DNA from: Eledone cirrhosa
Lineage: Eukaryota
Assembly: GCA_964016885.1 (NCBI GenBank)
Contig: OZ024743.1
Coordinates: forward strand, 18,662,001 to 18,726,000
Length of the DNA: 64,000 nucleotides
Direction: 5' to 3'
Positions within the stretch are counted from its first letter, which is position 1. Each line of letters starts with the position of its first letter. A model generated the notes under the pieces. It searched no databases. It saw only the letters and a program-made list of their open reading frames with translations, and had not been told where the DNA came from. Positions 1 to 62,730 of the stretch are shown here, piece after piece. A program made the translations under genes and the position numbers.

Positions 1-3000
1 TGCTAGCATTGATATGCATCTGTGTGTATATAAATGTTACTAGATATAAATTCCTTATAATTATCTCCAATTCATTTGTCGAGCAATATTTGGCCATGAC
101 TGCTACTATGGTAGTAAGCTGGCCGCTGTCTTAATAACCACTCGCTTTCCACTGATTGACCTCGATGTCACATGATTGATTCTTTTTGAATTTGCCGCGG
201 GCGTAGAGACAGTGATTTACACAATGGCTTGGAATCCAGTCCACGCATAGCTATTTCCATTCCACTGAATTATTTTTGTAATAAGTTTCCAGTGTCCTCG
301 CTATGCCTGGAGACCTATACGGAAAAATACTTTCCTGATGACGGAATGATTTTCTTTATGTTTCTTCGGAAAATATATTTACTCCATTCCAGAAACTAAT
401 TAGTTGGAAGTGATTTTTTAGGAAGTAAGTTAATTTTATAATTTTCTTATTTTACGACTCTCATATTATTGTTCTGCAACCCCATGCATTGAACCACATT
501 GTTAATAAGACAAACCCTATATATTTGCTAGCATTGATATGCATCTGTGTGTATATAAATGTTACTAGATATAAATTCCTTATAATTATCTCCAATTCAT
601 TTGTCGAGCAATATTTGGCCATGACTGCTTATATGGTAGTAAGCTGGCCGCTGTCTTAATAACCACTCGCTTTCCACTGATTCACCTCGATGTCACGTGA
701 TTGATTCTTTTTCTGAATTTGCCGCGGACGTAGAGGCACTGATTTTCTCAATGGCTTGGAATCCAGTTCAGGCATCGCTATTTCCATTCCACTGAATTAT
801 TTTTTTAATAAGTTTCCAGTGTCCTCGCTATGCCTTGAGACCTATACGGAAAAAGACTTTCCTGATGACGGAATGATTTTCGATATGTTTCTTCGGAAAA
901 TATATTTACTCCATTCCAGAAACTAATTAGTTGGAAGTGATTTTTTAGTAAGTAAGTTAATTTTATAATTTTCTTATTTTACGTCTCTCATATTATTGTT
1001 CTGCAACCCCATGCATTGAACCACGTTGTTAATAAGACAAAACCTATGTATTTGCTAGCATTGATATGCATCTGTGTGTATATAAATGTTACTAGATATA
1101 AATTCCTTATAATTATCTCCAATTCATTTGTCGAGCAATATTTGGCCATGACTGCTACTATGGTAGTAAGCTGGCCGCTGTCTTAATAACCACTCGCTTT
1201 CCACTGATTGAACTCGATATCACGTGATTGATTCTTTTTGAATTTGCCGCGGACGTAGAGGCAGTGATTTACACAATGGCTTGGAATCCAGTCCACGCAT
1301 AGCTATTTCCATTCCACTGAATTATTTTTGTAATAAGTTTCCAGTGTCCTCGCTATGCCTGGAGACCTATACGGAAAAATACTTTCCTGATGACGGAATG
1401 ATTTTCTTTATGTTTCTTCGGAAAATATATTTACTCCATTCCAGAAACTAATTAGTTGGAAGTGATTTTTTAGGAAGTAAGTTAATTTTATAATTTTCTT
1501 ATTTTACGACTCTCATATTATTGTTCTGCAACCCCATGCATTGAACCACATTGTTAATAAGACAAACCCTATATATTTGCTAGCATTGATATGCATCTGT
1601 GTGTATATAAATGTTACTAGATATAAATTCCTTATAATTATCTCCAATTCATTTGTCGAGCAATATTTGGCCATGACTGCTACTATGGTAGTAAGCTGGC
1701 CGCTGTCTTAATAACCACTCGCTTTCCACTGATTGACCTCGATGTCACGTGATTGATTGTTTTTGAATTTGCCGCGGATGTAGAGGCAGTGATTTTATCA
1801 ATGGCTTGGAATCCAGTCCACGCATCGCTATTTCCATTCCACTGAATTATTTTTTTAATAAGTTTCCAGTGTCCTCGCTATGCCTGGAGACCTATACGGG
1901 AAAAGACTTTCCTGATGACGGAAAGATTTTCTATATGTTTCTTCGGAAAATATATTTACTCCAATCCAGAAACTAATTAGTTGGAAGTGATTTTTCAGTA
2001 AGTAAGTTAATTTTATAATTTTCTTATTTTACGTCTCTCATATTATTGTTCTGCAACCCCATGCATTGAACCACATTGTTAATAAGTCAAAACCTATATA
2101 TTTGCTAGCATTGATATGCATGTGTGTGTATATAAATGTTACTAGATATAAATTCCTTATAATTATCTCCAATTCATTTGTCGAGCAATATTTGGCCATG
2201 ACTGCTACTATGGTAGTAAGCTGGCCGCTGTCTTAATAACCACTCGCTTTCCACTGATTCACCTCGATGTCACGTGATTGATTCTTTTTGAATTTGCTCC
2301 GGACGTAGAGGCAGTGATTTTCTCAATGGCTTGGAATCCAGTCCACGCATCGCTATTTCCATTCCACTGAATTATTTTTTTAATAAGTTTCCAGTGTCCT
2401 CGCTATGCCTGGAGACCTATACGGAAAAATACTTTCCTGATGACGGAATGATTTTCTTTGTTTCTTCGGAAAATATATTTACTCCATTCCAGAAACTAAT
2501 TAGTTGGAAGTGATTTTTTAGGAAGTAAGTTAATTTTATAATTTTCTTATTTTACGTCTGTCATATTATTGTTCTGCAACCCCATGCATTGAACCACATT
2601 GTTAATAAGACAAAACCTATATATTTGCTAGCATTGATATGCATCTGTGTGTAAATAAATGTTACTAGATATAAATTCCTTATAATTATCTCCAATTCAT
2701 TTCTCGAGCAATATTTGGCCATGACTGCTACTATGGTAGTAAGCTGGCCGCTGTCTTAATAACTACTCGCTTTCCACTTATTGACCTCGATGTCACGTGA
2801 TTGATTGTTTTTGAATTTGCCGCGGATGTAGAGGCAGTGATTTTCTCAATGGCTTGGAATCCAGTCCACGCATCGCTATTTCCATTCCACTGAATTATTT
2901 TTTTAATAAGTTTCCAGTGTCCTCGCTATGCCTGGATACCTATACGTAAAAAGTCTTTCCTGATGACGGAATTATTTTCGATATGTTTCTTCTGAAAATA

Positions 3001-6000
3001 TATTTACTCCATTCCAGAAACTAATTAGTTGGAACTGATTTTTTAGTAAGTAAGTTAATTTTATAATTTTCTTATCTTACGTCTCTCATATTATTGTTCT
3101 GCAACCCCATGCATTGAACCACATAGTTAATAAGACGAAACCTATGTATTTGCTAGCATTGATATGCATCTGTTTGTATATAAATGTTACTAGATAAAAA
3201 TTCCTTACAATTATCTCCAATTCATTTGTCGAGCAATATTTGGCCATGACTGCTACTATGGTAGTAAGCTGGCCGCTGTCTTAATAACCACTCGCTTTCC
3301 ACTGATTCACCTCGATGTCACGTGATTGATTCTTTTTGAATTTGCTCCGGACGTAGAGGCAGTGATTTTCTCAATGGCTTGGAATCCAGTCCACGCATCG
3401 CTATTTCCATTCAACTGAATTATTTTTTGAATAAGTTTCCAGTGTCCTCGCTATGCCTGGAGACCTATACGGGAAAAGACTTTCCTGATGATGGAAAGAT
3501 TTTCTATATGTTTCTTCGGAAAATATATTTACTCCATTCCAGAAACTAATTTGTTGGAAGTGATTTTTCAGTAAGTAAGTTAATTTTATAATTTTCTTAT
3601 TTTACGTCTCTCATATTATTGTTCTGCAACCCCATGCATTGAACCACATTGTTAATAAGACAAAACCTATATATTTGCTAGCATTGATATGCATCAGTGT
3701 GTAAATAAATGTTACTAGATATAAATTCCTTATAATTATCTCCAATTCATTTCTCGAGCAATATTTGGCCATGACTGCTACTATGGTAGTAAGCTGGCCG
3801 CTGTCTTAATAACCACTCGCTTTCCACTGATTGACCTCGATGTCACGTGATTGATTGTTTTTGAATTTGCCGCAGATGTAGAGGCAGTGATTTTCTCAAT
3901 GGCTTGGAATCCAGTCCACGCATCGCTATTTCCATTCCACTGAATTATATTTTTAATAAGTTTCCAGTGTCCTCGCTATGCCTGGATACCTATACGTAAA
4001 AAGTCTTTCCTGATGACGGAATTATTTTCGATATGTTTCTTCTGAAAATATATTTACTCCATTCCAGAAACTAATTAGTTGGAAGTGATTTTTTAGTAAG
4101 TAAGTTAATTTTATAATTTTCTTATCTTACGTCTCTCATATTATTGTTCTGCAACCCCATGCATTGAACCACATAGTTAAAAAGACGAAACCTATGTATT
4201 TGCTAGCATTGATATGCATCTGTGTGTATATAAATGTTACTAGATAAAAATTCCTTATAATTATCTCCAATTCATTTGTCGAGCAATATTTGGCCATGAC
4301 TGCTACTATGGTAGTAAGCTGGCCGCTGTCTTAATAACCACTCGCTTTCCACTGATTCACCTCGATGTCACGTGATTGATTCTTTTTGAATTTGCTCCGG
4401 ACGTAGAGGCAGTGATTTTCTCAATGGCTTGGAATCCAGTCCACGCATCGCTATTTCCATTCAACTGAATTATTTTATTAATAGGTTTCCAGTGTCCTTG
4501 CTGTGCCTGGAGACCTATACGGAACAATACTTTCCTGATGACGGAATGATTTTCTTCGTTTCTTCGGAAAATATATTTACTCCATTCCAGAAACTAATTA
4601 GTTGGAAGTGATTTTTTAGGAAGTAAGTTAATTTTATAATTTTCTTATTTTACGTCTCTCATATTATTGTTCTGCAACCCCATGCATTGAACCACATTGT
4701 TAATAAGACAAAACCTATATATTTGCTAGCATTGATATGCATCTGTGTGTATATAAATGTTACTAGATATAAATTCCTTATAATTATCTCCAATTCATTT
4801 GTCGAGCAATATTTGGCCATGACTGCTACTATGGTAGTAAACTGGCCGCTGTCTTAATAACCACTCGCTTTCCACTGATTGACCTCGATATCACGTGATT
4901 GATTCTTTTTGAATCTGCCGCGGATGTAGAGGCAGTGATTTTCTCAATGGCTTGGAATCCAGTCCACGCATCGCTATTTCCATTGCACTGAATTATTTTT
5001 TGAATAAGTTTCCAGTGTCCTCGCTATGCCTTGAGACCTATACGGAAAAAGACTTTCCTGATGACGGAATGATTTTCGATATGTTTCTTCGGAAAATATA
5101 TTTACTCCATTCCAGAAACTAATTAGTTGGAAGTGATTTTTTAGTAAGTAAGTTAATTTTATAATTTTCTTATTTTACGTCTCTCATATTATTGTTCTGC
5201 AACCCCATGCATTGAACCACATTGTTAATAAGACAAAAACTATATATTTGCTAGCATTGATATGCATGTGTGTGTATATAAATATTACTAGATATAAATT
5301 CCTTATAATTATCTCCAATTCATTTGTCGAGCAATATTTGGCCATGACTGCTACTATGGTAGTAAGCTGGCCGCTGTCTTAATAACCACTCGCTTTCCAC
5401 TGATTCACCTCGATGTCACGTGATTGATTCTTTTTGAATTTGCCGCGGACGTAGAGGCAGTGATTTTCTCAATGGCTTGGAATCCAGTCCACGCATCGCT
5501 ATTTCCATTCCACTGAATTATTTTTTGAATAAGTTTCCAGTGTCCTCGCTATGCCTGGAGACCTATACGGAAAAATACTTTCCTGATGACGGAATGATTT
5601 TCTTTGTTTCTTCGGAAAATATATTTACTCCATTCCAGAAACTAATTAGTTGGAAGTGATTTTTTAGGAAGTAAGTTAATTTTATAATTTTCTTATTTTA
5701 CGTCTCTCATATTATTTTTCTGCAACCCCATGCATTGAACCACATTGTTAATAAGACAAAACCTATATATTTACTAGCATTGATATGCAACTGCGTGTAT
5801 ATAAATGTTGCTACATATAAATTCCTTATAATTATCTCCAATTCATTTGTCGAGCAATATTTGGCCATGACTGCTACTATGGTAGTAAGCTGGCCGCCGT
5901 CTTAATAACCACTCGCTTTCCACTGATTGACCTCCATGTCAGATGATTGATTCTTTTTGAATTTGCCGCGGACGTAGAGGCAGTGATTTTCTCAATGGCT

Positions 6001-9000
6001 TGGAATCCAGTCCACGCATCGCTATTTCCATTCCACTGAATTATTTTTTTAATAAGTTTCCAGTGTCCTCGCTATGCCTTGAGACCTATACGGAAAAAGA
6101 CTTTCCTGATGACGGAATGATTTTCGATATCTTCGAAAAATATATTTACTCCATTCCAGAAACTAATTAGTTGGAAGTGATTTTTTAGTAAGTAAGTTAA
6201 TTTTATAATTTTCTTATTTTACGTCTCTCATATTATTGTTCTGCAACCCCATGCATTGAACCACATTGTTAATAAGACAAAAACTATATATTTGCTAGCA
6301 TTGATATGCATGTGTGTGTATATAAATATTACTAGATATAAATTCCTTATAATTATCTCCAATTCATTTGTCGAGCAATATTTGGCCATGACTGCTACTA
6401 TGGTAGTAAGCTGGCCGCTGTCTTAATAACCACTCGCTTTCCACTGATTCACCTCGATCTCACGTGATTGATTCTTTTTGAATTTGCCGCGGACGTAGAG
6501 GCAGTGATTTTCTCAATGGCTTGGAATCCAGTCCACGCATCGCTATTTCCATTCCACTGAATTATTTTTTTAATAAGTTTCCAGTGTCCTCGCTATGCCT
6601 GGAGACCTATACGGAAAAATACTTTCCTGATGACGGAATGATTTTCTTTGTTTCTTCGGAAAATATATTTACTCCATTCCAGAAACTAATTAGTTGGAAG
6701 TGATTTTTTAGGAAGTAAGTTAATTTTATAATTTTCTTATTTTACGTCTCTCATATTATTTTTCTGCAACCCCATGCATTGAACCACATTGTTAATAAGA
6801 CAAAACCTATATATTTGCTAGCATTGATATGCATCAGTGTGTAAATAAATGTTACTAGATATAAATTCCTTATAATTATCTCCAATTCATTTGTCGAGCA
6901 ATATTTGGCCATGACTGCTACTATGGTAGTAAACTGGCCGCTGTCTTAATAACCACTCGCTTTCCACTGATTGACCTCGATATCACGTGATTGATTCTTT
7001 TTGAATTTACCGCGGACGTAGAGGCAGTGATTTTCTCAATGGCTTGGAATCCAGTCCACGCATCGCTATTTCCATTCCACTGAATTATTTTTTGAATAAG
7101 TTTCCAGTGTCCTCGCTATGCCTTGAGACCTATACGGAAAAAGACTTTCCTGATGACGGAATGATTTTCGATATGTTTCTTCGGAAAATATATTTACTCC
7201 ATTCCAGAAACTAATTAGTTGGAAGTGATTTTTTAGTAAGTAAGTTAATTTTATAATTTTCTTATTTTACGTCTCTCATATTATTGTTCTGCAACCCCAT
7301 GCATTGAACCACATTGTTAATAAGACAAAAACTATATATTTGCTAGCATTGATATGCATGTGTGTGTATATAAATATTACTAGATATAAATTCCTTATAA
7401 TTATCTCCAATTCATTTGTCGAGCAATATTTGGCCATGACTGCTACTATGGTAGTAAGCTGGCCGCTGTCTTAATAACCACTCGCTTTCCACTGATTCAC
7501 CTCGATGTCACGTGATTGATTCTTTTTGAATTTGCCGCGGACGTAGAGGCAGTGATTTTCTCAATGGCTTGGAATCCAGTCCACGCATCGCTATTTCCAT
7601 TCCACTGAATTATTTTTTTAATAAGTTTCCAGTGTCCTCGCTATGCCTGGAGACCTATACGGAAAAATACTTTCCTGATGACGGAATGATTTTCTTTGTT
7701 TCTTCGGAAAATATATTTACTCCATTCCAGAAACTAATTAGTTGGAAGTGATTTTTTAGGAAGTAAGTTAATTTTATAATTTTTTTATTTTACGTCTCTC
7801 ATATTATTTTTCTGCAACCCCATGCATTGAACCACATTGTTAATAAGACAAAACCTATATATTTACTAGCATTGATATGCAACTGCGTGTATATAAATGT
7901 TGCTACATATAAATTCCTTATAATTATCTCCAATTCATTTGTCGAGCAATATTTGGCCATGACTGCTACTATGGTAGTAAGCTGGCCGCCGTCTTAATAA
8001 CCACTCGCTTTCCACTGATTGACCTCCATGTCAGATGATTGATTCTTTTTGAATTTGCCGCGGACGTAGAGGCAGTGATTTTCTCAATGGCTTGGAATCC
8101 AGTCCACGCATCGCTATTTCCATTCCACTGAATTATTTTTTTAATAAGTTTCCAGTGTCCTCGCTATGCCTTGAGACCTATACGGAAAAAGACTTTCCTG
8201 ATGACGGAATGATTTTCGATATCTTCGAAAAATATATTTACTCCATTCCAGAAACTAATTAGTTGGAAGTGATTTTTTAGTAAGTAAGTTAATTTTATAA
8301 TTTTCTTATTTTACGTCTCTCATATTATTGTTCTGCAACCCCATGCATTGAACCACATTGTTAATAAGACAAAAACTATATATTTGCTAGCATTGATATG
8401 CATGTGTGTGTATATAAATATTACTAGATATAAATTCCTTATAATTATCTCCAATTCATTTGTCGAGCAATATTTGGCCATGACTGCTACTATGGTAGTA
8501 AGCTGGCCGCTGTCTTAATAACCACTCGCTTTCCACTGATTCACCTCGATGTCACGTGATTGATTCTTTTTGAATTTGCCGCGGACGTAGAGGCAGTGAT
8601 TTTCTCAATGGCTTGGAATCCAGTCCACGCATCGCTATTTCCATTCCACTGAATTATTTTTTTAATAAGTTTCCAGTGTCCTCGCTATGCCTGGAGACCT
8701 ATACGGAAAAATACTTTCCTGATGACGGAATGATTTTCTTTGTTTCTTCGGAAAATATATTTACTCCATTCCAGAAACTAATTAGTTGGAAGTGATTTTT
8801 TAGGAAGTAAGTTAATTTTATAATTTTCTTATTTTACGTCTCTCATATTATTTTTCTGCAACCCCATGCATTGAACCACATTGTTAATAAGACAAAACCT
8901 ATATATTTGCTAGCATTGATATGCATCAGTGTGTAAATAAATGTTACTAGATATAAATTCCTTATAATTATCTCCAATTCATTTGTCGAGCAATATTTGG

Positions 9001-12000
9001 CCATGACTGCTACTATGGTAGTAAACTGGCCGCTGTCTTAATAACCACTCACTTTCCACTGATTGACCTCGATATCACGTGATTGATTCTTTTTGAATTT
9101 GCCGCGGACGTAGAGGCAGTGATTTTCTCAATGGCTTGGAATCCAGTCCACGCATCGCTATTTCCATTCCACTGAATTATTTTTTGAATAAGTTTCCAGT
9201 GTCCTCGCTATGCCTTGAGACCTATACGGAAAAAGACTTTCCTGATGACGGAATGATTTTCGATATGTTTCTTCGGAAAATATATTTACTCCATTCCAGA
9301 AACTAATTAGTTGGAAGTGATTTTTTAGTAAGTAAGTTAATTTTATAATTTTCTTATTTTACGTTTCTCATACTATTGTTCTGCAACCCCATGCATTGAA
9401 CCTCATTGTTAATAAGACAAAAACTATATATTTGCTAGCATTGATATGCAACTGTGTGTATATAAATGTTGCTAGATATAAATTCCTTATAATTATCTCC
9501 AATTCATTTGTCGAGCAATATTTGGCCATGACTGCTACTATGGTAGTAAGCTGGCCGCCGTCTTAATAACCACTCGCTTTCCACTGATTGACCTCCATGT
9601 CACATGATTGATTCTTTTTGAATTTGCCGCGGACGTAGAGGCAGTGATTTTCTCAATGGCTTGGAATCCAGTCCACGCATCGCTATTCCCATTCCACTGA
9701 ATTATTTTTTTAATAAGTTTCCAGTGTCCTCGCTATGCCTGGAGACCTATACGGGAAAAGACTTTCCTGATGACGGAAAGATTATATATATATTTCTTCG
9801 GAAAATATATTTACTCCATTCCAGAAACTAATTAGTTGGAAGTGATTTTTTAGTAAGTAAGTTAATTTTATAATTTTCTTATTTTACGTCTCTCATATTA
9901 TTGTTCTGCAACCCCATGCATTGAACCACATTGTTAATAAGACACAAACTATATATTTGCTAGCATTGATATGCATCTGTGTGTATATAAATGTTACTAG
10001 ATATAAATTCCTTATAATTATCTCCAATTCATTTGTCGAGCAATATTTAGCCATGACTGCTACTATGGTAGTAAGCTGGCCGCTGTCTTAATAACCACTC
10101 GCTTTCCACTGATTCACCTCGATGTCACGTGATTGATTCTTTTTGAATTTGCTCCGGACGTAGAGGCAGTGATTTTCTCAATGGCTTGGAATCCAGTCCA
10201 CGCATCGCTATTTCCATTCCACTGAATTATTTTTTTAATAAGTTTCCAGTGTCCTCGCTATGCCTGGAGACCTATACGGAAAAATACTTTCCTGATGACG
10301 GAATGATTTTCGTTGTTTCTTCGGAAAATATATTTACTCCATTCCAGAAACTAATTAGTTGGAAGTGATTTTTAAGGAAGTAAGTTAATTTTATAATTTT
10401 CTTATTTTACGTCTCTCATATTATTGTTCTGCAACCCCATGCATTGAACCACATTGTTAATAAGACAAAACCTATATATTTGCTAGCATTGATATGCATC
10501 TGTGTGTATATAAATGTTACTAGATATAAATTCCTTATAATTATCTCCAATTCATTTGTCGAGCAATATTTGGCCATGACTGCTAATATGGTAGTAAGCT
10601 GGCCGCTGTCTTAATAACCACTCGCTTTCCACTGATTGACCTCGATGTTACGTGATTGATTCTTTTTCTGAATTTGCCGCGGACGTAGCTGCAGTGATTT
10701 TCTCAATGGCTTGGAATCCAGTCCAGGCATCGCTATTTCCATTCCACTGAATTATTTTTTTAATAAGTTTCCAGTGTCCTCGCTATGCCTTGAGACCTAT
10801 ACGGAAAAAGACTTTCCTGATGACGGAATGATTTTCGATATGTTTCTTCGGAAAATATATTTACTCCATTCCAGAAACTAATTAGTTGGAAGTGATTTTT
10901 CAGTAAGTAAGTTAATTTTATAATTTTCTTATTTTACGTCTCTCATACTATTGTTCAGCAACCCCATGCATTGAACCACATTGTTAATAAGACAAAACCT
11001 ATATATTTGCTAGCATTGATATGCATCTGTGTGTATATACATGTTGCTACATATAAATTCCTTATAATTATCTCCAATTCATTTGTCGAGCAATATTTGG
11101 CCATGACTGCTACTATGGTAGTAAGCTGGCCGCTGTCTTAATAACCACTCGCTTTCCGCTGATTGACCTCGATGTCACATGATTGATTCTTTTTGAATTT
11201 GCCGCGGACGTAGAGACAGTGATTCTCTCAATGGCTTGGAATCCAGTCCAGGCATCGCTATTTCCATTCCACTGAATTATTTTTTTAATAAGTTTCCAGT
11301 GTCCTCGCTATGCCTGGAGACCTATACGGGCAAAGACTTTCCTGATGACGGAAAGATTTTCTATATGTTTCTTCGGAAAATATATTTACTCCAATCCAGA
11401 AACTAATTAGTTGGAAGTGATTTTTCAGTAAGTAAGTTAATTTTATAATTTTCTTATTTTACGTCTCTCATATTATTGTTCTGCAACCCCATGCATTGAA
11501 CCACATTGTTAATAAGACAAAACCTATATATTTGCTAGCATTGATATGCATGTGTGTGTATATAAATGTTACTAGATATAAATTCCTTATAATTATCTCC
11601 AATTCATTTGTCGAGCAATATTTGGCCATGACTGCTACTATGGTAGTAAGCTGGCCGCTGTCTTAATAACCACTCGCTTTCCACTGATTCACCTCGATGT
11701 CACGTGATTGACTCTTTTTGAATTTGCTCCGGACGTAGAAGCAGTGATTTTCTCAATGGCTTGGAATCCAGTCCACGCATCGCTATTTCCATTCGACTGA
11801 AGTATTTTTTTAATAAGTTTCCAGTGTCCTCGCTATGCCTGGAGACCTATACGGAAAAATACTTTCCTGATGACGGAATGATTTTCTTTGTTTCTTCGGA
11901 AAATATATTTACTCCATTCCAGAAACTAATTAGTTGGAAGTGATTTTTTAGGAAGTAAGTTAATTTTATAATTTTCTTATTTTACGTCTCTCATATTATT

Positions 12001-48000: not shown

Positions 48001-51000
48001 TTAATAAGTTTCCAGTGTCCTCGCTATGCCTGGAGACCTATACGGGAAAAGACTTTCCTGATGACGGAAAGATTTTCTATATGTTTCTTCGGAAAATATA
48101 TTTACTCCATTCCAGAAACTAATTAGTTGGAAGTGATTTTTTAGTAAGTAAGTTAATTTTATAATTTTCTTATTTTACGTCTCTCATATTATTGTTCTGC
48201 AACCCCATGCATTGAACTACATTGTTAATAAGACAAAAACTATATATTTGCTAGCATTGATATGCATGTGTGTGTATATAAATGTTACTAGATATAAATT
48301 CCTTATAATTATCTCCAATTCATTTGTCGAGCAATATTTAGCCATGACTGCTACTATGGTAGTAAGCTGGCCGCTGTCTTAATAACCACTCGCTTTCCAC
48401 TGATTCACCTCGATGTCACGTGATTGATTCTTTTTGAATTTGCTCCGGACGTAGAGGCAGTGATTTTCTCAATGGCTTGGAATCCAGTCCACGCATCGCT
48501 ATTTCCATTCCACTGAATTATTTTTTTAATAAGTTTCCAGTGTCCTCGCTATGCCTGGAGACCTATACGGAAAAATACTTTCCTGATGACGGAATGATTT
48601 TCTTTGTTTCTTCGGAAAATATATTTACTCCGTTCCAGAAACTAATTAGTTGGAAGTGATTTTTAAGGAAGTAAGTTAATTTTATAATTTTCTTATTTTA
48701 CGTCTCTCATATTATTGTTCTGCAACCCCATGCATTGAACCACGTTGTTAATAAGACAAAACCTATATATTTGCTAGCATTGATATGCATCTGTGTGTAT
48801 ATAAATGTTACTAGATATAAATTCCTTATAATTATCTCCAATTCATTTGTCGAGCAATATTTGGCCATGACTGCTAATATGGTAGTAATTGGCCGCTGTC
48901 TTAATAACCACCCGCTTTCCACTGATTGACCTCGATGTCACGTGATTGATTCTTTTTCTGAATTTGCCGCGGACGTAGAGGCAGTGATTTTCTCAATGGC
49001 TTGGAATCCAGTCCAGGCATCGCTATTTCCATTCCACTGAATTATTTTTTTAATAAGTTTCCAGTGTCCTCGCTATGCCTTGAGACCTATACGGAAAAAG
49101 ACTTTCCTGGTGACGGAATGATTTTCTTTATGTTTCTTCGGAAAATATATTTACTCCATTCCAGAAACTAATTAGTTGGAAGTGATTTTTTAGGAAGTAA
49201 GTTAATTTTATAATTTTCTTATTTTAAGTCTCTCATATTATCGTTCTGCAACCCCATGCATTGAACCACATTGTTAATAAGACAAAACCTATATATTTGC
49301 TAGCATTGATATGCATCTGTGTGTATATAAATGTTACTAGATATAAATTCCTTATAATTATCTGCAATTCATTTGTCGAGCAATATTTGGCCATGACTGC
49401 TACTATGGCAGTAAGCTGGCCGCTGTCTTAATAACCACTCCCTTTCCACTGATTGACCTCGATGTCACATGATTGATTCTTTTTGAATTTGCCGCGGACG
49501 TAGAGGCAGTGATTTTCTCAATGGCTTGGAATCCAGTCCACGCATCGCTATTTCCATTCCACTGAATTATTTTTTTAATAAGTTTCCAGTGTCCTCGCTA
49601 TGCCTGGATACCTATACGTAAAAAGTCTTTCCTGATGACGGAATGATTTTCGATATGTTTCTTCGGAAAATATATTTACTCCATTCCAGAAACTAATTAG
49701 TTGGAAGTGATTTTTTAGTAAGTAAGTTAATTTTATAATTTTCTTATCTTACGTCTCTCATATGATTGTTCTGCAACCCCATGCATTGAACCACATTGTT
49801 AATAAGACAAAACCAATGTATTTGCTAGCATTGATATGCATCTGTGTGTCTATAAATGTTACTAGATATAAATTCCTTATAATTATCTCCAATTCATTTG
49901 TCGAGCAATATTTGGCCATGACTGCTACTATGGTAGTAAGCTGGCCGCTGTCTTAATAACCACTCGCTTTACACTGATTGACCTCGATATCACGTGATTG
50001 ATTCTTTTTGAATTTGCCGCGGACGTAGAGGCAGTGATTTTCTCAATGGCTTGGAATCCAGTCCACGCATCGCTATTTCCATTCCACTGAATTATTTTTT
50101 TAATAGGTTTCCAGTGTCCTCGCTATGCCTGGAGACCTATACGGAAAAAGAATTTCCTTCGGACGGAAAGATTTTCTATATGTTTCTTCGGAAAATCTAT
50201 TTACTCCATTCCAGAAACTAATTAGTTGGAAGTGATTTTTTAGTAAGTTAATTTTATAATTTTTTTTATTTTACGTCTCTCATATTATTGTTCTGCAACC
50301 CCATGCATTGAACCACATTGTTAATAAGACAAAACCTATATATTTGCTAGCATTGATATGCATCTGTGTGTATATAAATGTTACTAGATATAAATTCCTT
50401 ATAATTATCTCCAATTCATTTGTCTAGCAATATTTGGCCATGACTGCTACTATGGTAGTAAGCTGGCCGCTGTCTTAATAACCACTCGCATTCCACTGAT
50501 TGACCTCGATGTAACGTGATTGATTGTTTTTAAATTTGCCGCGGACGTAGAGGCAGTGATTTTCTCAATATCTTGGAATCCAGTCCACGCATCGCTATTT
50601 CCATTCCACTGAATAATTTTTTTAATAATTTTCCAGTGTCCTCGCTATGCCTGGAGACCTATACGGAAAAAGACTTTCCTGATGACGGAATGATTTTCGA
50701 TATGTTTCTTCGGAAAATATATATACTCCATTCCAGAAACTAATTAGTTGGACGTGATTTTTTAGTAAGTAAGTTAATTTTATAATTTTCTTATTTTACG
50801 TCTTCATATTATTGTTCTGCAACCCCATGCATTGAACCACATTGTTAATATGACAAAACCTATATATTTGCTAGCATTGATATTCATCTGTGTGTATATA
50901 AATTTTACTAGATATAAATTCCTTATAATTATCTCCAATTCATTTGTCGAGCAATATATGGCCATGACTGCTACTATGGTAGTAAGCTGGCCGCTGTCTT

Positions 51001-54000
51001 AATAACCACTCGCTTTCCACTGATTTACCTCGATGTAACGTGATTGATTGTTTTTAAATTTGCCTCGGACGTAGAGGCAGTGATTTTCTCAATGGCTTGG
51101 AATCCAGTCCACGCATCGCTATTTCCATTCCACTGAATTATTTGTTTAATAAGTTTCCAGTGTCCTCGCTATGCCTGGAGACCTATACGGAAAAATACTT
51201 TCCTGATGACGGAATGATTTTCTTTGTTTCTTCGGAAAATATATTTACTCCATTCCAGAAACTAATTAGTTGGAAGTGATTTTTAAGGAAGTAAGTTAAT
51301 TTTATAATTTTCTTATTTTACGTCTCTCAAATTATTGTTCTGCAACCCCATGCATTGAACCACGTTGTTAATAAGACAAAATCTATATATTTGCTAGCAT
51401 TGATATGCATATGTGTGTATATAAATGTTACTAGATATAAATTCCTTATAATTATCTCCAATTCATTTGTCGAGCAATATTTGGCCATGACTGCTAATAT
51501 GGTAGTAAGCTGGCCGCTGTCTTAATAACCACTCGCTTTCCACTGATTGACCTCGATGTCACGTGATTGATTCTTTTTCTGAATTTGCCGCGGACGTAGA
51601 GGCAGTGATTTTCTCAATGGCATGGAATCCAGTCCACGCATCGCTATTTCCATTCCACTGAATTATTTTTTTAATAAGTTTCCAGTGTCCTCGCTATGCC
51701 TTGAGACCTATACGGAAAAAGACTTTCCTGATGACGGAATGATTTTCGATATCTTTCTTCGGAAAATATATTTACTCCATTCCAGAAACTAATTAGTTGG
51801 AAGTGATTTTTTAGTAAGTAAGTTCATTTTATAATTTTCTTATTTTACGTCTTTCATATTATTGTTCTGCAACCCCATGCATTGAACCACATTGTTAATA
51901 TGACAAAACCCATATATTTGCTAGCATTGATATTCAGCTGTGTGTATATAAATGTTACTACATATAAATTCCTTATAATTATCTCCAATTCATTTGTCGA
52001 GCAATATTTGGCCATGACTGCTACTATGGTAGTAAGCTGGCCGCTGTCTTAATAACCACTCGCTTTCCACTGATTCACCTCGATGTCACGTGATTGATTC
52101 TTTTTGAATTTGCTCCGGACGTAGAGGCAGTGATTTTCTCGATGGCTTGGAATCCAGTCCACGCATCGCTATTTCCATTCCACTGAATTATTTTTTTAAA
52201 AGGTTTCCAGTGTCCTCGCCATGCCTGGAGACCTATACGGAAAAAGAATTTCCTTCGGACGGAAAGATTTTCTATATGTTTCTTCGGAAAATCTATTTAC
52301 TCCATTCCAGAAACTAATTAGTTGGAATGATTTTTTAGTAAGTTAATTTTATAAATTTTTTTATTTTACGTCTCTCATATTATTGTTCTGCAACCCCATG
52401 CATTGAACCACATTGTTAATAAGACAAAACCTATATATTTGCTAGCATTGATATGCATCTGTGTGTATATAAATGTTACTAGATATAAATTCCTTATAAT
52501 TATCTCCAATTCATTTGTCGAGCAATATTTGGCCATGACTGCTACTATGGTAGTAAGCTGGCCGCTGTCTTAATAACCACTCGCATTCCACTGATTGACC
52601 TCGATGTAACGTGATTGATTGTTTTTAAATTTGCCGCGGACGTAGAGGCAGTGATTTTCTCAATGGCTTGGAATCCAGTCCACGCATCGCTATTTCCATT
52701 CCACTGAATTATTTTTTTAATAAGTTTCCAGTGTCCTCGCTATGCCTGGAGACCTATACGGAAAAAGACTTTCCTGATGACGGAATGATTTTCGATATGT
52801 TTCTTCGGAAAATATATATACTCCATTCCAGAAACTAATTAGTTGGACGTGATTTTTTAGTAAGTAAGTTAATTTTATAATTTTCTTATTTTAAGTCTTT
52901 CATATTATTGTTCTGCAACACCCATGCATTGAACCACGTTGTTAATATGACAAAACCTATATATTTGCTAGCATTGATATTCATCTGTGTGTATATAAAT
53001 GTTACTAGATATAAATTCCTTATAATTATCTCCAATTCATTTGTCGAGCAATATATGGCCATGACTGCTACTATGGTAGTAAGCTGGCCGCTGTCTTAAT
53101 AACCACTCGCTTTCCACTGATTGACCTCGATGTAACGTGATTGATTGTTTTTAAATTTGCCTCGGACGTAGAGGCAGTGATTTTCTCAATGGCTTGGAAT
53201 CCAGTCCACGCATCGCTATTTCCATTCCACTGAATTATTTGTTTAATAAGTTTCCAGTGTCCTCGCTATGCCTGGAGACCTATACGGAAAAATACTTTCC
53301 TGATGACGGAATGATTTTCTTTGTTTCTTCGGAAAATATATTTACTCCATTCCAGAAACTAATTAGTTGGAAGTGATTTTTAAGGAAGTAAGTTAATTTT
53401 ATAATTTTCTTATTTTACGTCTCTCAAATTATTGTTCTGCAACCCCATGCATTGAACCACGTTGTTAATAAGACAAAACCTATATATTTGCTAGCATTGA
53501 TATGCATCTGTGTGTATATAAATGTTACTAGATATAAATTCCTTATAATTATCTCCAATTCATTTGTCGAGCAATATTTGGCCATGACTGCTACTATGGC
53601 AGTAAGCTGGCCGCTGTCTTAATAACCACTCCCTTTCCACTGATTGACCTCGATGCACATGATTGATTCTTTTTGAATTTGCCGCGGACGTAGAGGCAGT
53701 GATTTTCTCAATGGCTTGGAATCCAGTCCACGCATCGCTATTTCCATTCCACTGAATTATTTTTTTAATAAGTTTCCAGTGTCCTCGCTATGCCTGGATA
53801 CCTATACGTAAAAAGTCTTTCCTGATGACGGAATGATTTTCGATATGTTTCTTCGGAAAATATATTTACTCCATTCCAGAAACTAATTAGTTGGAAGTGA
53901 TTTTTTAGTAAGTAAGTTAATTTTATAATTTTCTTATCTTACGTCTCTCAAATTATTGTTCTGCAACCCCATGCATTGAACCACGTTGTTAATAAGACAA

Positions 54001-57000
54001 AACCTATATATTTGCTAGCATTGATATGCATCTGTGTGTATATAAATGTTACTAGATATAAATTCCTTATAATTATCTCCAATTCATTTGTCGAGCAATA
54101 TTTGGCCATGACTGCTACTATGGTAGTAAGCTGGCCGCTGTCTTAATAACCACTCGCTTTACACTGATTGACCTCGATATCACGTGATTGATTCTTTTTG
54201 AATTTGCCGCGGACGTAGAGGCAGTGATTTTCTCAATGGCTTGGAATCCAGTCCACGCATCGCTATTTTCCATTCCACTGAATTATTTTTTTAATAGGGT
54301 TCCAGTGTCCTCGCTATGCCTGGAGACCTATACGGAAAAAGAATTTCATTCGGACGGAAAGATTTTCTATATGTTTCTTCGGAAAATCTATTTACTCCAT
54401 TCCAGAAACTAATTAGTTGGAAGTGATTTTTTAGTAAGTTAATTTTATAATTTTTTTTATTTTACGTCTCTCATATTATTGTTCTGCAACCCCATGCATT
54501 GAACCACATTGTTAATAAGACAAAACCTATATATTTGCTAGCATTGATATGCATCTGTGTGTATATAAATGTTACTAGATATAAATTCCTTATAATTATC
54601 TCCAATTCATTTGTCGAGCAATATTTGGCCATGACTGCTACTATGGTAGTAAGCTGGCCGCTGTCTTAATAACCACTCGCATTCCACTGATTGACCTCGA
54701 TGTAACGTGATTGATTGTTTTTAAATTTGCCGCGGACGTAGAGGCAGTGATTTTCTCAATGTCTTGGAATCCAGTCCACGCATCGCTATTTCCATTCCAC
54801 TGAATAATTTTTTTAATAAGTTTCCAGTGTCCTCGCTATGCCTGGAGACCTATACGGAAAAAGACTTTCCTGATGACGGAAAGATTTTCCATATGTTTCT
54901 TAGGAAAATATATATACTCCATTCCAGAAACTAATTAGTTGGACGTGATTTTTTAGTAAGTAAGTTAATTTTATAATTTTCTTATTTTACGTCTCTCATA
55001 TTATTGTTCTGCAACCCCATGCATTGAACCACATTGTTAATAAGACAAAACCTATATATTTGCTAGCATTGATATGCATGTGTGTGTATATAAATGTTAC
55101 TAGATATACATTCCTTATAATTATCTCCAATTCATTTGTCGAGCAATATTTGGCCATGACTGCTACTCTGGTAGTAAGCTGGCTGCTGTCTTAATAACCA
55201 CTCGCTTTCCACTGATTGACCTCGATGTCACGTGATTGATTCTTTTTGAATTTGCTCCGGACGTAGAGGCAGTGATTTTCTCAATGGCTTGGAATCGAGT
55301 CCACGCATCGCTATTTCCATTCCACTGAATTATTTTTTTAATAGGTTTCCAGTGTCCTCGCTATGCCTGGAGACCTATACGGAAAAAGAATTTCCTTCGG
55401 ACGGAAAGATTTTCTATATGTTTCTTCGGAAAATCTATTTACTCCATTCCAGAAACTAATTAGTTGGAATGATTTTTTAGTAAGTTAATATTATAATTTT
55501 TTTTATTTTACGTCTCTCATATTATTGTTCTGCAACCCCATGCATTGAACCACATTGTTAATAAGACAAAACCTATATATTTGCTAGCATTGATATGCAT
55601 CTGTGTGTATATAAATGTTACTAGATATAAATTCCTTATAATTATCTCCAATTCATTTGTCGAGCAATATTTGGCCATGACTGCTACTATGGTAGTAAGC
55701 TGGCCGCTGTCTTAATAACCACTCGCATTCCACTGATTGACCTCGATGTAACGTGTTTGATTGTTTTTAAATTTGCCGCGGACGTAGAGGCAGTGATTTT
55801 CTCAATGGCTTGGAATCCAGTCCACGCATCGCTATTTCCATTCCACTGAATTATTTTTTTAATAAGTTTCCAGTGTCCTCGCTATGCCTGGAGACCTATA
55901 CGTAAAAAGACTTTCCTGATGACGGAATGATTTTCGATATGTTTCTTCGGAAAATATATATACTCCATTCCAGAAACTAATTAGTTGGACGTGATTTTTT
56001 AGTAAGTAAGTTAATTTTATAATTTTCTTATTTTACGTCTTTCATATTATTGTTCTGCAACCCCATGCATTGAACCACATTGTTAATATGACAAAACCTA
56101 TATATTTGCTAGCATTGATATTCATCTGTGTGTATATAAATGTTACTAGATATAAATTCCTTATAATTATCTCCAATTCATTTGTCGAGCAATATATGGC
56201 CATGACTGCTACTATGGTAGTAAGCTGGCCGCTGTCTTAATAACCACTCGCTTTCCACTGATTTACCTCGATGTAACGTGATTGATTGTTTTTAAATTTG
56301 CCTCGGACGTAGAGGCAGTGATTTTCTCAATGTCTTGGAATCCAGTCCACGCATCGCTATTTCCATTCCATTGAATTATTTGTTTAATAAGTTTCCAGTG
56401 TCCTCGCTATGCCTGGAGACCTATACGGAAAAATACTTTCCTGATGACGGAATGATTTTCTTTGTTTCTTCGGAAAATATATTTACTCCATTCCAGAAAC
56501 TAATTAGTTGGAAGTGATTTTTAAGGAAGTAAGTTAATTTTATAATTTTCTTATTTTACGTCTCTCAAATTATTGTTCTGCAACCCCATGCATTGAACCA
56601 CGTTGTTAATAAGACAAAACCTATATATTTGCTAGCATTGATATGCATCTGTGTGTATATAAATGTTACTAGATATAAATTCCTTATAATTATCTCCAAT
56701 TCATTTGTCGAGCAATATTTGGCCATGACTGCTAATATGGTAGTAAGCTGGCCGCTGTCTTAATAACCACTCGCTTTCCACTGATTGACCTCGATGTCAC
56801 GTGATTGATTCTTTTTCTGAATTTGCCGCGGACGTAGAGGCAGTGATTTTCTCAATGGCTTGGAATCCAGTCCAGGCATCGCTATTTCCATTCCACTGAA
56901 TTATTTTTTTAATAAGTTTCCAGTGTCCTCGCTATGCCTTGAGACCTATACGGAAAAAGACTTTCCTGATGACGGAATGATTTTCGATATCTTTCTTCGT

Positions 57001-60000
57001 AAAATATATTTACTCCATTCCAGAAACTGATTAGTTGGAAGTGATTTTTTAGTAAGTAAGTTAATTTTATAATTTTCTTATTTTACGTCTTTCATATTAT
57101 TGTTGTGCAACCCCATGCATTGAACCACATTGTTAATATGACAAAACCCATATATTTGCTAGCATTGATATTCAGCTGTGTGTATATAAATGTTACTAGA
57201 TATAAATTCCTTATAATTATCTCCAATTCATTTGTCGAGCAATATTTGGCCATAACTGCTACTATGGTAGTAAGCTGGCCGCTGTCTTAATAACCACTCG
57301 CTTTCCACTGATTGACCTCGATGTCACGTGATTGATTCTTTTTGAATTTGCTCCGGACGTAGAGGCAGTGATTTTCTCAATGGCTTGGAATCCAGTCCAC
57401 GCATCGCTATTTCCATTCCACTGAATTATTTTTTTAATAGGTTTCCAGTGTCCTCGCCATGCCTGGAGACATATACGGAAAAAGAATTTCCTTCGGACGG
57501 AAAGATTTTCTATATGTTTCTTCGGAAAATATATTTAATCCATTCCAGAAACTAATTAGTTGGAAATGATTTTTTAGTAAGTAAGTTAATTTTATAATTT
57601 TCTTATTTTACGTCTTTCATATTATTGTTCTGCAACCCCATGCATTGAACCACATTGTTAATAAAACAAAACTTATATATTTGCTAGCATTGATATGCAT
57701 CTGTGTGTATATAAATGTTACTAGATATAAATTCCTTATAATTATCTCCAATTCATTTGTCGAGCAATATTTGGCCATGACTGCTACTATGGTAGTAAGC
57801 TGGCCGCTGTCTTAATAACCACTCGCTTTCCACTGATTGACCTCGATGTAACGTGATTGATTGTTTTTAAATTTGCCGCGGACGTAGAGGCAGTGATTTT
57901 CTCAATGGCTTGGAATCCAGTCCACGCATCGCTATTTCCATTCCACTGAATTATTTTTTTAATAAGTTCCCAGTGTCCTCGCTATGCCTGGCGACCTATA
58001 CGTAAAAAGACTTTCCTGATGACGGAATGATTTTCGATATGTTTCTTCGGAAAATATATTTACTCCATTCCAGAAACTAATTAGTTGGAAGTGATTTTTT
58101 AGTAAGTAAGTTAATTTTATAATTTTCTTATCTTACGTCTCTCATATTATTGTTCTGCAACCCCATGCATTGAACCACATTGTTAATAAGACAAAACCTA
58201 TATATTTGCTAGCATTGATATGCATGTGTGTGTATATAAATGTTACTAGATATAAATTCCTTATAATTATCTCCAATTCATTTGTCGAGCAATATTTGGC
58301 TATGACTGCTACTATGGTAGTAAGCTGGCCGCTGTCTTAATAACCACTCGCTTTCCACTGATTGACCTCGATGTCACGTGATTGATTCTTTTTGAATTTG
58401 CTCCGGACGTAGAGGCAGTGATTTTCTCAATGGCTTGGAATCCAGTCCACGCATCGCTATTTCCATTCCACTGAATTATTTTTTAATATGTTTCCAGTGT
58501 CCTTGCTATGCCTGGAGACCTATACGGGAAAAGAGTTTACTGATGACGGAAAGATTTTCTATATGTTTCTTCGGAAAATATATTTACTCCATTCCAGAAA
58601 CTAATTAGTTGGAAATGATTTTTAGTAAGTAAGTTAATTTTATAATTTTCTTATTTTACGTCTTTCATATTATTGTTCTGCAACCCCATGCATTGAACCA
58701 CATTGTTAATAAGAGAAAACTTATATATTTGCTAGCATTGATATGCATGTGTGTATATAAATGTCACTAGATATAAATTCCTTATAATTATCTCCAATTC
58801 ATTTGTCGAGCAATATTTGGCCATGACTGCTAGTATGGTAGTAAGCTGGCCGCTGTCTTAATAACCACTCGCTTTCCACTGATTGACCTCGATGTCACGT
58901 GATTGATTCTTTTTGAATTTGCCGCGGACGTAGAAGCAGTGATTTTCTCAATGGCTTGGAATCCAGTCCACGCATCGCTATTTCCATTCCACTGTATTAT
59001 TTTTTTTAGTAAGTTTCCAGTGTCCTCGCTATGCCTGGAGACCTATACGGAAAAATACTTTCCTGATAACGGAATGATTTTCGATATGTTTCTTCGGAAA
59101 ATATATTTACTCCATTCCAGAAACTAATTAGTTGGAAGTGATTTTTTAGTAAGTAAGTTAATTTTATAATTTTCTTATCTTACTTCTCTCATATTATTGT
59201 TCTGCAACCCCATGCATTGAGCCACATTGTTAATAAGACAAAACCTATATATTTGCTAGCATTGATATGCATCTGTGTGTATATAAATGTTACCAGATAT
59301 AAATTCCTTATAATTATCTCCAATTCATTTGTCGAGCAATATTTGGCCATGACTGCTACTATGGTAGTAAGCTGGCCGCTGTCTTAATAACCACTCGCTT
59401 TCCACCGATTGACCTCGATGTCATGTGATTGATTCTTTTTGAATTTGCTCCGGACGTAGAGGCAGTGATTTTCTCAATGGCTTGGAATCCAGTCCACGCA
59501 TCGCTATTTCCATTCCGCTGAATTATTTTTTGAATAAGTTTCCAGTGTCCTCGCTATACCTGGAGACCTATACGGGAAAATACTTTCCTGATGACGGAAA
59601 GATTTTCCGTATGTTTCTTCGGAAATTATATTTACTCCATTCCAGAATCTAATTAGTTGGAAGTGATTTCTTAGTAAGTAAGTTAATTTTATAATTTTCT
59701 TATTTTACGTCTTTCATATTATTGGTCTGCAACCCCATGCATTGAACCACATTGTTAATAAGACAAAACTTATATATTTGCTAGCATTGATATGCATCTG
59801 TGTGTATATAAATGTCACTAGATATAAATTCCTTATAATTATCTCCAATTCATTTGTCGAGCAATATTTGGCCATGACTGCTACTATGGTAGTAAGCTGG
59901 CCGCTGTCTTAATAACCACTCGCTTTCCACTGATTGACCTCGATGTCACGTGATTGATTCTTTTTGAATTTGCCGCGGACGTAGAGGCAGTGATTTTCTC

Positions 60001-60235
60001 AATGGCTTGGAATCCTGTCCACGCATCGCTATTTCCATTCCACTGAATTATTTTTTGTAATATGTTTCCAGTGTTCTCGCTATGCCTGGAGACCTATACG
60101 GAAAAAGACTTTCCTGATGACGGAATGATTTTCGATATGTTTCTTCGGAAAATATATTTACTCCATTCCAGAACCTAATTAGTTGGAAGTGATTTTTTCG
60201 TAAGTAAGTTAATTTTATAATATCCTTATTTTACG

Positions 60236-60241
<6 letters not shown>
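1..60241 (+). repeat. Tandem satellite array, ~524.5 bp monomer (521-527 bp length variants), ~115 copies, truncated by the left window edge
   Basis: The landmark tgctagcattgatatgca occurs at 1, 526 and 1053 and recurs head-to-tail to about 59.8 kb. Spacings in the ORF track are multiples of ~524 (523, 1048, 1573, 2099). Length classes come from small indels: ttctttgtttc (-2), tttttctgaa (+2), and gatatcttcgaaaaa or tttagtaagttaa (-4). Confidence 0.99.
323..418 (+). ncRNA. Putative type I hammerhead ribozyme (first copy; the motif recurs once per monomer and is degenerate in some)
   Basis: Stem I ACUUUC 329-334 / GGAAGU 406-411, extended by AAAAAU 323-328 / AUUUUU 413-418. Core CUGAUGA 335-341. 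Stem II GGAAUG 343-348 / CAUUCC 385-390. GAAA 392-395. Stem III ACU-AAUU-AGU 395-404. Cleavage triplet GUU 403-405. Atypical C342/A391 opposition at the base of stem II. Folded by eye only. Confidence 0.68.

Positions 60242-60319
<78 letters not shown>
60242..60319. repeat. (AT)39 microsatellite terminating the array
   Basis: Perfect AT run directly after the monomer sequence ...gtctctc. Confidence 0.98.
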
Positions 60320-60325
<6 letters not shown>

Positions 60326-60431
60326 CCTAAAATAAGAAAATTATAAAATTAACTTACTTACTAAAAAGTCACTCCCAACTAATTAGTTTCTGGAATGGAG
60401 TAAATATATTTCCCGAAGAAGATATAGAGAA
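60320..60431 (-). repeat. Inverted partial monomer (3' half of the hammerhead motif plus downstream AT-rich segment)
   Basis: The reverse complement reads ttctctatatcttcttcgggaaatatatttactccattccagaaactaattagttgggagtgactttttagtaagtaagttaattttataattttcttattttaggtctctc, which matches monomer positions ~350-462. Confidence 0.96.
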
Positions 60432-60435
60432 TATA

Positions 60436-61100
60436 TATAATTTTCTTAATTTACGTATCTCATATTATTGTTCTGCAACCCCATGCATTAAACCACAATG
60501 TTACTAAGACAAAACCTATATATTTGCTAGCATCGATATGCATCTGTATGTATATATATGTTACTAGATATTAATTCTTTCTAATTATCTCTAAATTATT
60601 TGTCGAGCAATATTGGCCATGACTGCTGCTATGGTAGTAGGCAGGCCGCTGTCTTATTAGCAAACCACTTTCCACTGATTGACCTCGATGTCACGTGATT
60701 GATTCTTTTTGAATTTTCCACAGACGCAGAGGCAGTGATTTTCTCAATGGCTAGGAATTCAGTCCACTCTTTGCTATTTCCTATCCACTCAATTATTTTT
60801 TAATAAGTTTCCAGAGTCCTCGCTTTGCCTGGAAACTTAGATGAGAATAGACTTCCCTGATGACGGAATGTTTCTCCATATCTTCTTCGGAAAATATATT
60901 TACTCCATTCCAGAAACTAATTAGTTGGAAGTGATATTTTAGTAAGTAAGTTAATTTTATAATTTTCTTATTTTACGCCTCTCATATTATTGTTCTGCAA
61001 CCCCATGCATTAAACCAGAATGTTACTAAGACAAAATCTATATATTTGCTAGCATCGATATGCATCTGTATGTATATATATGTTACTATATATTAATTCT

Positions 61101-61103
<3 letters not shown>
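60436..61103 (+). repeat. Diverged ~1.27-monomer copy of the satellite unit with ~145 bp terminal redundancy
   Basis: Collinear with the monomer, with about 50 differences per unit by manual count (~10%). Segments ~60436-60581 and ~60958-61103 share private variants (cattaaacc, ttactaag, catcgat, ctgtatg). Confidence 0.95.
60844..60940 (+). ncRNA. Putative type I hammerhead ribozyme in the diverged flanking copy
   Basis: Stem I ACUUCC 60851-60856 / GGAAGU 60927-60932 is fully Watson-Crick. CUGAUGA 60857-60863. Stem II GGAAUG 60865-60870 / CAUUCC 60906-60911. GAAA 60913-60916. GUU 60924-60926. Confidence 0.7.

Positions 61104-61157
<54 letters not shown>
61104..61157. repeat. (TA)27 microsatellite
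   Basis: Perfect TA run at the point where the diverged monomer stops. Confidence 0.97.
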
Positions 61158-61162
<5 letters not shown>

Positions 61163-61434
61163 TAGGTTATGCATGAAATGCTTAGGATTATCCTGAATGC
61201 AGTAATGGTTAATTACTACACTATATAGAGTCGACGGACGTTGAGGTGTTACTCAATGAGTTATAAAAGAACAGTTAAAGAAACTCGATTTCCGATTCCT
61301 CTGTATTCCGGAGTGTAGTAACTACTAAAGGGACATTTTAAAGCACTCGGAATAAACTACCTTTTTATGATGTCTACCTCTTTTATTAAACATTCTTTAT
61401 AAATATATATATCTATATATCAATATATATTTAT

Positions 61435-61436
<2 letters not shown>

Positions 61437-61496
<60 letters not shown>
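61437..61496. repeat. (AT)30 microsatellite with a degenerate TA-rich left flank
   Basis: Direct reading of the sequence. Confidence 0.97.
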
Positions 61497-62265: not shown

Positions 62266-62730
62266 AGAAAATTGAGGTTGGTAATGGCACATGGAATATA
62301 TAAGAGACAGAATACTTTTTTGTGAAAAAACATATAATTTTATAAGGTAAGGAAATAATAAAGGGTATAAAAAATGACCGGTTTCGATGGGTCTGCAAGA
62401 GCCATCTTTTCAAATGCTGATTAATATTAAGAAAAATTAATAATACGAAGAGTTAAAATTTGAGATTTGAAAATTCAAGTATAACATTCATTGTCGGATT
62501 TCATAGTAGTTTTCATCTAGGTAGCAACAACAGGTTGACTGCTGTGTCCCTTTCTGGTAGTGAATGAGAAGTTATTTGGGGTGTGGGTTATTTTATAAAG
62601 GTCAGATTTAGCAATGGGCAACTGGCCAGCTGCTGGTCAGTGAGGGGGTGGAAGCAATATACATACACATATCTTCCTGTGGTGGGTAGGAGAGTGGAGC
62701 GTCATAGAAAGGGATTTAGTGCACTTACAC

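Follow-up and report, generated by a model that had tools for sequence, protein, structure and literature searches.

A tandem array of 525-bp hammerhead units in Eledone cirrhosa with the sequence characters of an animal non-LTR retrozyme

A tandem array of hammerhead ribozyme-bearing units of about 525 bp was analyzed in a stretch of 64,000 nucleotides from Eledone cirrhosa (GenBank assembly GCA_964016885.1, contig OZ024743.1, positions 18,662,001 to 18,726,000 of the forward strand), which is called the window here. Judged from its sequence, the array behaves like an animal retrozyme of the non-LTR class, which lacks long terminal repeats (LTRs). The unit is probably a non-autonomous and non-coding retrozyme of this class, related to Penelope-like elements (PLEs), of which one insertion would later have been amplified into a neutrally drifting satellite. 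A sequence-only reading of the same DNA had seen a possible giant retrozyme-like array able to release unit-length RNAs. The anatomy of the unit, the PLE-type ribozyme and the insertion marks bear out the likeness to retrozymes, while upkeep of the units for RNA production is spoken against, among other results, by ribozyme sites that vary like the rest of the unit. The features are listed in Table 1.

Table 1. Features of the window, with those inside the unit given for unit 1.
Feature	Position	Strand	Remark
Tandem array, 115 units of ~525 bp	1..60241	+	last unit cut off at monomer position 466; left end beyond the window
Internal strand pairing with 396-413 across the cut site (unit 1)	142..158	+	candidate ligation splint or ribozyme block; prediction, modest significance
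Type I hammerhead motif, unit 1 (other units alike)	329..411	+	parts given in the text
(AT)39 microsatellite	60242..60319		adjoined by the array end and the inverted copy, each at position 466
Inverted, 5'-truncated copy, monomer 349-466	60316..60434	-	92-93% identical; 3' half of the hammerhead only
Partial tandem copy, diverged subfamily, monomer 437-525, 1-525, 1-59	60436..61105	+	90% identical to the consensus
(TA)29 microsatellite	61104..61162		adjoins the right end of the diverged copy, monomer position 59
Unrelated second PLE-type hammerhead remnant	62376..62413	-	U3-A8 core, stem II of 5 bp, GAAA, and a short palindrome; decayed stem I

A BLAST comparison of unit 1 with the window counted 115 units, all on the same strand and all with the hammerhead region, in agreement with the number and orientation reported earlier. 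The 114 full units are 519-527 bp long, and the units are 93.5-99.0% identical to unit 1, the coordinates of which are used here as monomer positions. The consensus monomer is 525 bp, and the mean pairwise divergence of the full units is 4.2%. The previously proposed span of 1 to 60,241 holds for these units, but not as the limit of the family, since related copies reach position 61,105. The size, called "giant" before, falls within the published range (85 units of 450 bp; up to 300 units). The array goes unreported by Tandem Repeats Finder, the maximum period of which is 500. The GC content of the window is 35%, below the 50% under which retrozymes lie, and the unit length is within the published 51-972 bp, though above 150-450 bp.

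The hammerhead motif of unit 1 consists of stem I (329-334/406-411), the core CUGAUGA (335-341), an extra C342, stem II of 6 bp starting from G343-C390 (343-348/385-390) with a 36-nt insert containing a hairpin, an extra A391, GAAA (392-395), and a 10-nt palindromic stem III (395-404). The predicted cut is at 405|406, after U405. G406 directly follows it, so that the 5' end of the monomer is predicted at position 406, exactly where it had been placed before. CUGANGA, GAAA and UH are all kept in 97 of the 115 units. The core together with at least five of six pairs in each of stems I and II and all three pairs of stem III is found in 86/115, and the core with every stem pair in 59/115. Units 1-26 form an uninterrupted run with intact cores; provided that an additional base is tolerated in front of GAAA, the two or more consecutive complete type I hammerheads that characterize retrozymes are thus present. 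If every intact core cut, 82 of the 96 computed intervals would be monomers, 13 dimers, and one a trimer.

The motif corresponds to the PLE type of hammerhead. The PLE consensus has CUGANGAH, a long helix II starting with G, and a palindromic helix III (Cervera and de la Pena 2014, PMC4209133), and the unit has the extra base after A9 (C342), a long G-started helix II, and a palindromic helix III. The extra A before GAAA departs from this consensus, in which C11.1 is followed by GAAA; AGAAA appears in one of the 56 core entries of Fig. S3 of that work, in a row that is not assignable to an element. A391 is present in 114/115 units and in the diverged copy of the right flank, and is unchanged among the matches listed for the sequencing runs described below; from its retention in the units and the diverged copy, it is therefore old rather than a recent lesion. 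The 10-nt palindrome is predicted to form a 10-bp duplex with a second copy at -9.0 kcal/mol and no hairpin alone, which fits the dimer (double-hammerhead) route described for PLE hammerheads (PMC6765202).

An identical three-base change in the core was observed in units 30, 38, 41, 45, 96, 100, 104, 106, and 110. With this change, the core reads like a short motif of the stem II insert that lies some 30 nt further downstream, and the match hints that the change arose in one templated event and not through three point mutations.

The right end of the array carries the marks of a PLE-type insertion. The targets are microsatellites, and a partial tandem is flanked by an inverted truncated copy (Table 1). 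Insertions of endonuclease-positive (EN+) PLEs are described in the same terms, as truncated partial tandems with an adjacent inverted truncated copy and a bias towards microsatellites (Craig et al., bioRxiv 10.1101/2021.04.23.441226). The diverged copy has an intact hammerhead, with the core at 60,857 and a stem I that is wholly Watson-Crick. The insertion ends sit in (TA)n, where a target-site duplication is illegible. In contrast to EN+ PLEs, neither a reverse transcriptase nor a GIY-YIG domain was detected when 61,160-64,000 and two units were translated in six frames, in accordance with the earlier statement that the window has no reverse transcriptase. The (TA)n-biased clade Naiad is without hammerheads in the account of Craig et al., and the helper clade is therefore not assigned by the (TA)n bias. 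As a separate observation, the length of the inverted piece, 118 nt, equals the distance by which the plus-strand copy continues beyond position 466 (60,991-61,105).

Relatives of the unit were found outside the window, and the dispersed copies that the sequence-only reading asked for were thereby located. One monomer was compared with the contigs of four (X1, X4, X5, and X8) of twelve listed sequencing runs. X1 and X5 are from organism A and belong to one study, and X1 may be the source sample; X4 is from organism B. Among the loose ends listed, at least 17 X1 contigs and at least two X5 contigs end at position 466 and enter (AT)n, and at least two X1 contigs end at position 59. In one X1 contig, positions 464 and 56 are fused with opposite strand orientation. 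Judged from these ends, there may be a second end preference at position 56-59. Organism B has 53 contigs covering 29 of 30 monomer bins, while X8 has only two contigs. X5 is a small run of unrecorded kind; one of its 49 contigs is at least 99% identical, and no inference on expression is drawn from it. The monomer end is joined to the monomer start in one X5 contig of 587 nt and in one X4 contig; therefore, diverged subfamilies are tandem too. Among the matches listed for the four runs, the core is altered solely at N7, a free position.

Predicted folding distinguishes the two strands. Predicted circles of the plus strand have z-scores of -3.0 to -5.1 against shuffles (four array monomers and the diverged copy), whereas those of the minus strand have -0.8 to +0.9 (four tested); 100 shuffles were used for one circle and 30 for each of the others. 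The monomer circle is predicted to be 59-63% paired, as a self-paired circle of the retrozyme kind. The diverged copy and unit 54 have 86 predicted pairs in common, against 33 +/- 15 in random mutants matched to the substitution spectrum of the diverged copy, and none of 150 mutants reached 86. The diverged copy departs from the array consensus at one of 44 ribozyme positions, against 53/481 elsewhere (p = 0.07), and this single difference, from G.U to G-C in the diverged copy, improves stem I. CpG transitions (12/32 vs. 35/155, p = 0.11) were also counted, and no claim on methylation is made from them.

Within the array, the ribozyme is not preserved better than the remainder of the unit. Variability was tested on the 114 full units, excluding the truncated last unit and the flank copy. 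Core plus stems are variable at 20/44 sites, against 196/481 elsewhere (p = 0.63), and the core at 5/12, against 211/513 elsewhere. After base matching, 23 ribozyme alleles are observed and 21.5 expected. The conservation of the ribozyme above the rest of the unit, as known from the cricket satellite pDo500, is thus not seen within the array. Such neutral drift would make the array satellite DNA, with 97 intact cores that were passed down and are not kept up by selection. The constraint at the RNA level probably dates from the mobile phase, followed by drift in the array; it is placed there because the ribozyme sites vary like the rest in the array, and because the array grew by block duplication of DNA.

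This growth was traced through near-identical units. Runs of them lie 2, 3, 4, and 6 units apart, and large blocks come back with a lag of 54-64 units, pairing units 6-23 with 70-83 and units 28-46 with 86-105. A partner within two differences exists for 79 of the 114 full units, whereas the last five full units differ from every other unit at 9-20 positions. The pattern is one of nested block duplication with poorly homogenized edges, which is what unequal exchange in satellites is expected to produce. The "satellite-style higher-order structure" of the sequence-only reading is this pattern, and not a fixed-period higher-order repeat. The history proposed there, a ribozyme retroelement turning into a satellite, is supported.

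The large blocks also raise the question of assembly. The array could be real and its length inflated, with units 6-46 and 70-105 being two alleles joined in tandem, as the blocks are separated by just 0.4-1.1 bases per unit. The lag drifts along the block, however (64, 60, 58, 55, 59), and both halves contain small nested duplications like those of an ordinary satellite, a point that is not decisive since alleles could differ likewise. Such a join is considered improbable, and even a halved array would exceed 30 kb.

A less easily dismissed alternative, which is that of the sequence-only reading, is that linear and circular RNAs of about 525 nt are actively produced from the array itself, as from pDo500 of the cricket and satellite 2 of the newt, and that the ribozymes matter now. 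The 97 intact cores speak for it, as do the plus-strand fold signal still present in array units and the retention, in 88 of the 115 units, of a helix across the cut site (described below) at -14 kcal/mol or better. Tandem retrozymes of coral, mussel, and axolotl are reported to be expressed as circles (PMC7229834). On the other hand, the ribozyme is unconserved in the array, unlike that of pDo500, and its 5' half is even more variable than the remainder (14/20 vs. 202/505, p = 0.010, one of six regions tested); the three-base core change has spread to nine units; and the opposition of C and A at the base of stem II is rejected by standard criteria. In a 900-nt context, moreover, the active fold lies above the minimum by 12.6 kcal/mol as a single and by 16.3 kcal/mol as a double hammerhead, with tertiary contacts ignored. 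Because of this energy cost, any cleavage would be co-transcriptional or assisted. In published retrozyme work, one of nine comparable predicted dimers from Xenopus is described as cleaved in vitro. An active array with ribozymes of present importance is regarded as somewhat unlikely. Expression needs no selection, so release of RNA by the array can be compatible with its being a drifting satellite of retrozyme origin.

The helix across the cut site is formed with an internal strand of the unit (Table 1). It is predicted to have 16 bp in total, 8 bp on each side of a bulged U405, which is the scissile base. The predicted pairing probability is 0.4-0.8 for both ends in the linear monomer and 0.6-0.99 in the circle. 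RtcB is reported to circularize retrozyme monomers in vitro (PMC7229834). According to the same source, most animal retrozyme circles are predicted not to block their own ribozyme, and Cervera and de la Pena state there that animal retrozyme circles need some unexplained guard against re-cutting. The helix would be a concrete candidate for such a guard in the 525-bp family. A subfamily with an altered 5' part of the 142-158 strand comprises at least 17 X1 contigs and at least two X4 contigs among the loose ends listed. The 3' arm is altered in the inverted piece and in some contigs.

In its full form, the proposal joins several parts. The unit would carry an active variant of the PLE-type hammerhead, with C.A at the base of stem II, together with its own splint; one strand would pair with both cut ends, leave only the scissile U free, and then lock the ribozyme in the circle. 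The splint would co-vary with the ribozyme between subfamilies. The locus would keep, with the end intact, the shift from an RNA-selected mobile circle to a neutral satellite, and the array might still release circles. This combination as a whole is put forward as a doubtful proposal.

The course of events that best fits the retrozyme origin begins with a multimeric plus-strand transcript in the mobile phase, which would be cut at 405|406, by a single hammerhead during transcription or by a double hammerhead through the 10-nt palindrome. In the resulting 525-nt monomer, 142-158 would pair with both new ends and hold them for a host RtcB-type ligase, and once the circle is closed, the same pairing would hold the ribozyme inactive. 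A reverse transcriptase/endonuclease of a PLE, acting in trans, would copy the monomer into (TA)n tracts, with position 466 as the end of the copy, and the insertion would sometimes bring an inverted truncated piece. To judge from the copy pattern, a single insertion, with its right end intact at 60,241, would then have been amplified by unequal exchange to at least 115 units, among which the ribozyme would drift neutrally.

Several results weigh against this interpretation. Rfam reports no hammerhead at the gathering score, and at E-values up to 10 it gives seven chance matches, none of them a hammerhead. Taken alone, the ribozyme region (83-95 nt) has no folding advantage over shuffles, and the active fold is not the one of minimum energy. 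C342 opposes A391 at the base of stem II. Perreault et al. 2011 discard matches with a mispair adjoining the core in stem II, yet report an active U-U case (PMC3088659); because of the C342/A391 mispair, the motif is not classed as a canonical hammerhead. The right end of the diverged copy is at position 59, and not at 466. The neutrality test is small (44 sites) and blind to weak selection. Among the pairs shared by two subfamilies, no two-sided compensatory change was found, only four changes from G.U to A-U. The splint was noticed after the fact; its energy was equalled by 10, 12, 31, and 64 of 1000 shuffles in four copies, and in unit 50, four of 75 other windows outscore the splint window.

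The silence of Rfam could mean that the array is an ordinary satellite with a hammerhead-like motif due to chance, the more so as the type I descriptor was relaxed after the motif had been seen, and gives zero matches unless one extra base is permitted before GAAA. The relaxed descriptor finds one match per unit, on the plus strand only; among 5000 dinucleotide shuffles, it found no match at each of three settings and a single one at the loosest. Features outside the descriptor fit a hammerhead element too, namely the 10-nt palindrome, the fixed end at (TA)n, the inverted truncated copy, and the strand-specific fold. A chance origin is therefore considered extremely improbable.

The C.A opposition lends itself to another explanation. 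The unit could be a terminal repeat of a PLE, the hammerhead of which is dead or barely active owing to the extra A391, and which was carried in truncated insertions and tandemized as DNA without ever being an RNA circle. PLE hammerheads are described as cleaving poorly in vitro (PMC4209133), the other eight of the nine predicted Xenopus dimers remained uncut, and seeding of a local tandem repeat by the pseudo-LTR (pLTR) of a PLE is a published model. The age of A391, however, argues against a lesion; the strand-specific conservation of the fold spans the whole circle rather than the ribozyme alone; and the tandem arrangement of diverged subfamilies, seen in the wrapped X5 and X4 contigs, points the same way. 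A terminus that never became a circle is judged unlikely.

Hammerhead-bearing tandem repeats of this type are already known from several animals. The animal non-LTR retrozymes likewise have non-coding head-to-tail units with one type I hammerhead each, a low GC content, and a self-paired predicted circle (PMC7229834; Li, Clavereau and Pollet 2026, bioRxiv 10.64898/2026.07.22.740005); these two accounts give unit lengths of 51-972 bp and array sizes of as many as 300 units. Described arrays include 62-mers in coral, one of 180 units in axolotl, and one of 300 units in Ophonus. The unit of Eledone cirrhosa is known from DNA alone, exceeds the 170-400-nt elements that were tested, and has a hammerhead of the PLE type instead of the canonical one. 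Its predicted circle blocks its own ribozyme, which PMC7229834 describes in LTR retrozymes of plants and in some circles of mussels, but not in most animal ones.

The closest parallels in arrangement are two. Dwi_HHR2 of Drosophila willistoni is likewise a PLE-associated hammerhead in a long array, of up to 85 units of 450 bp (38 kb) (PMC4209133). The array described here has at least 115 units of 525 bp, an extra A before GAAA, and a 36-nt insert in stem II. The satellite pDo500 of Dolichopoda, which makes up about 5% of the cricket genome, also has a unit of about 500 bp with one hammerhead, and both the single and the double hammerhead routes (PMC2837043). For pDo500, cleavage and monomers in vivo are reported, and the ribozyme exceeds the rest of the unit in conservation across species, whereas no such conservation is seen within the present array. 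The route from a PLE terminus through a retrozyme to a satellite has already been proposed in print. The find itself is modest, since its kind is already known; its value lies in 115 copies with natural variants of core, stems, and splint, a diverged sister, and an intact insertion end, which make this idea testable at one locus. No published description of the 525-bp family was found in the literature, and the extra-A variant may be covered in work outside the search.

Searches for coding content agree with a non-coding unit, as the six frames of two units contain no Pfam family at the cut-off. A 76-amino acid frame after the cut site was rejected as a gene; its single match, P0001 (an exostosin-domain protein), owes its score to nine repeats, and the frame is interrupted by a stop in the diverged copy. 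No tRNA gene was found in 58,000-64,000. A bacterial promoter scan stayed at chance level, the method not being apt here. A pattern scan gave no matches in viral contigs. In metagenomes, it gave the locus L001, which was rejected as a relative since the match is a chance one of 22 bases; by eye, L001:1600-3400 seems to carry exons of a eukaryotic seven-transmembrane receptor gene.

Some junctions in the sequencing runs lie away from positions 59 and 466. Among the loose ends listed, at least three X1 contigs and one X5 contig exit at monomer 497 (window 28,291) into common other sequence, and at least two X5 contigs enter from other sequence at monomer 416 (window 28,210). A related element, or the helper PLE, could lie behind these junctions. 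The summed contig depth is highest over monomer positions of about 445-480, and was not used as evidence.

The final 4 kb of the window abound in (AT)n and (AG)n. The second hammerhead remnant there has the U3-A8 core variant that is described in PMC4209133. It lies in a stretch of about 455 bp (62,270-62,725) between (AG)n/(AT)n and (TA)/(CATA)n, and has no comparable splint (-8.4 kcal/mol). This remnant suggests that other PLE families used the same microsatellite-rich spot. The flank also contains a 44-bp direct repeat with 84% identity (61,662-61,710 and 62,055-62,097).

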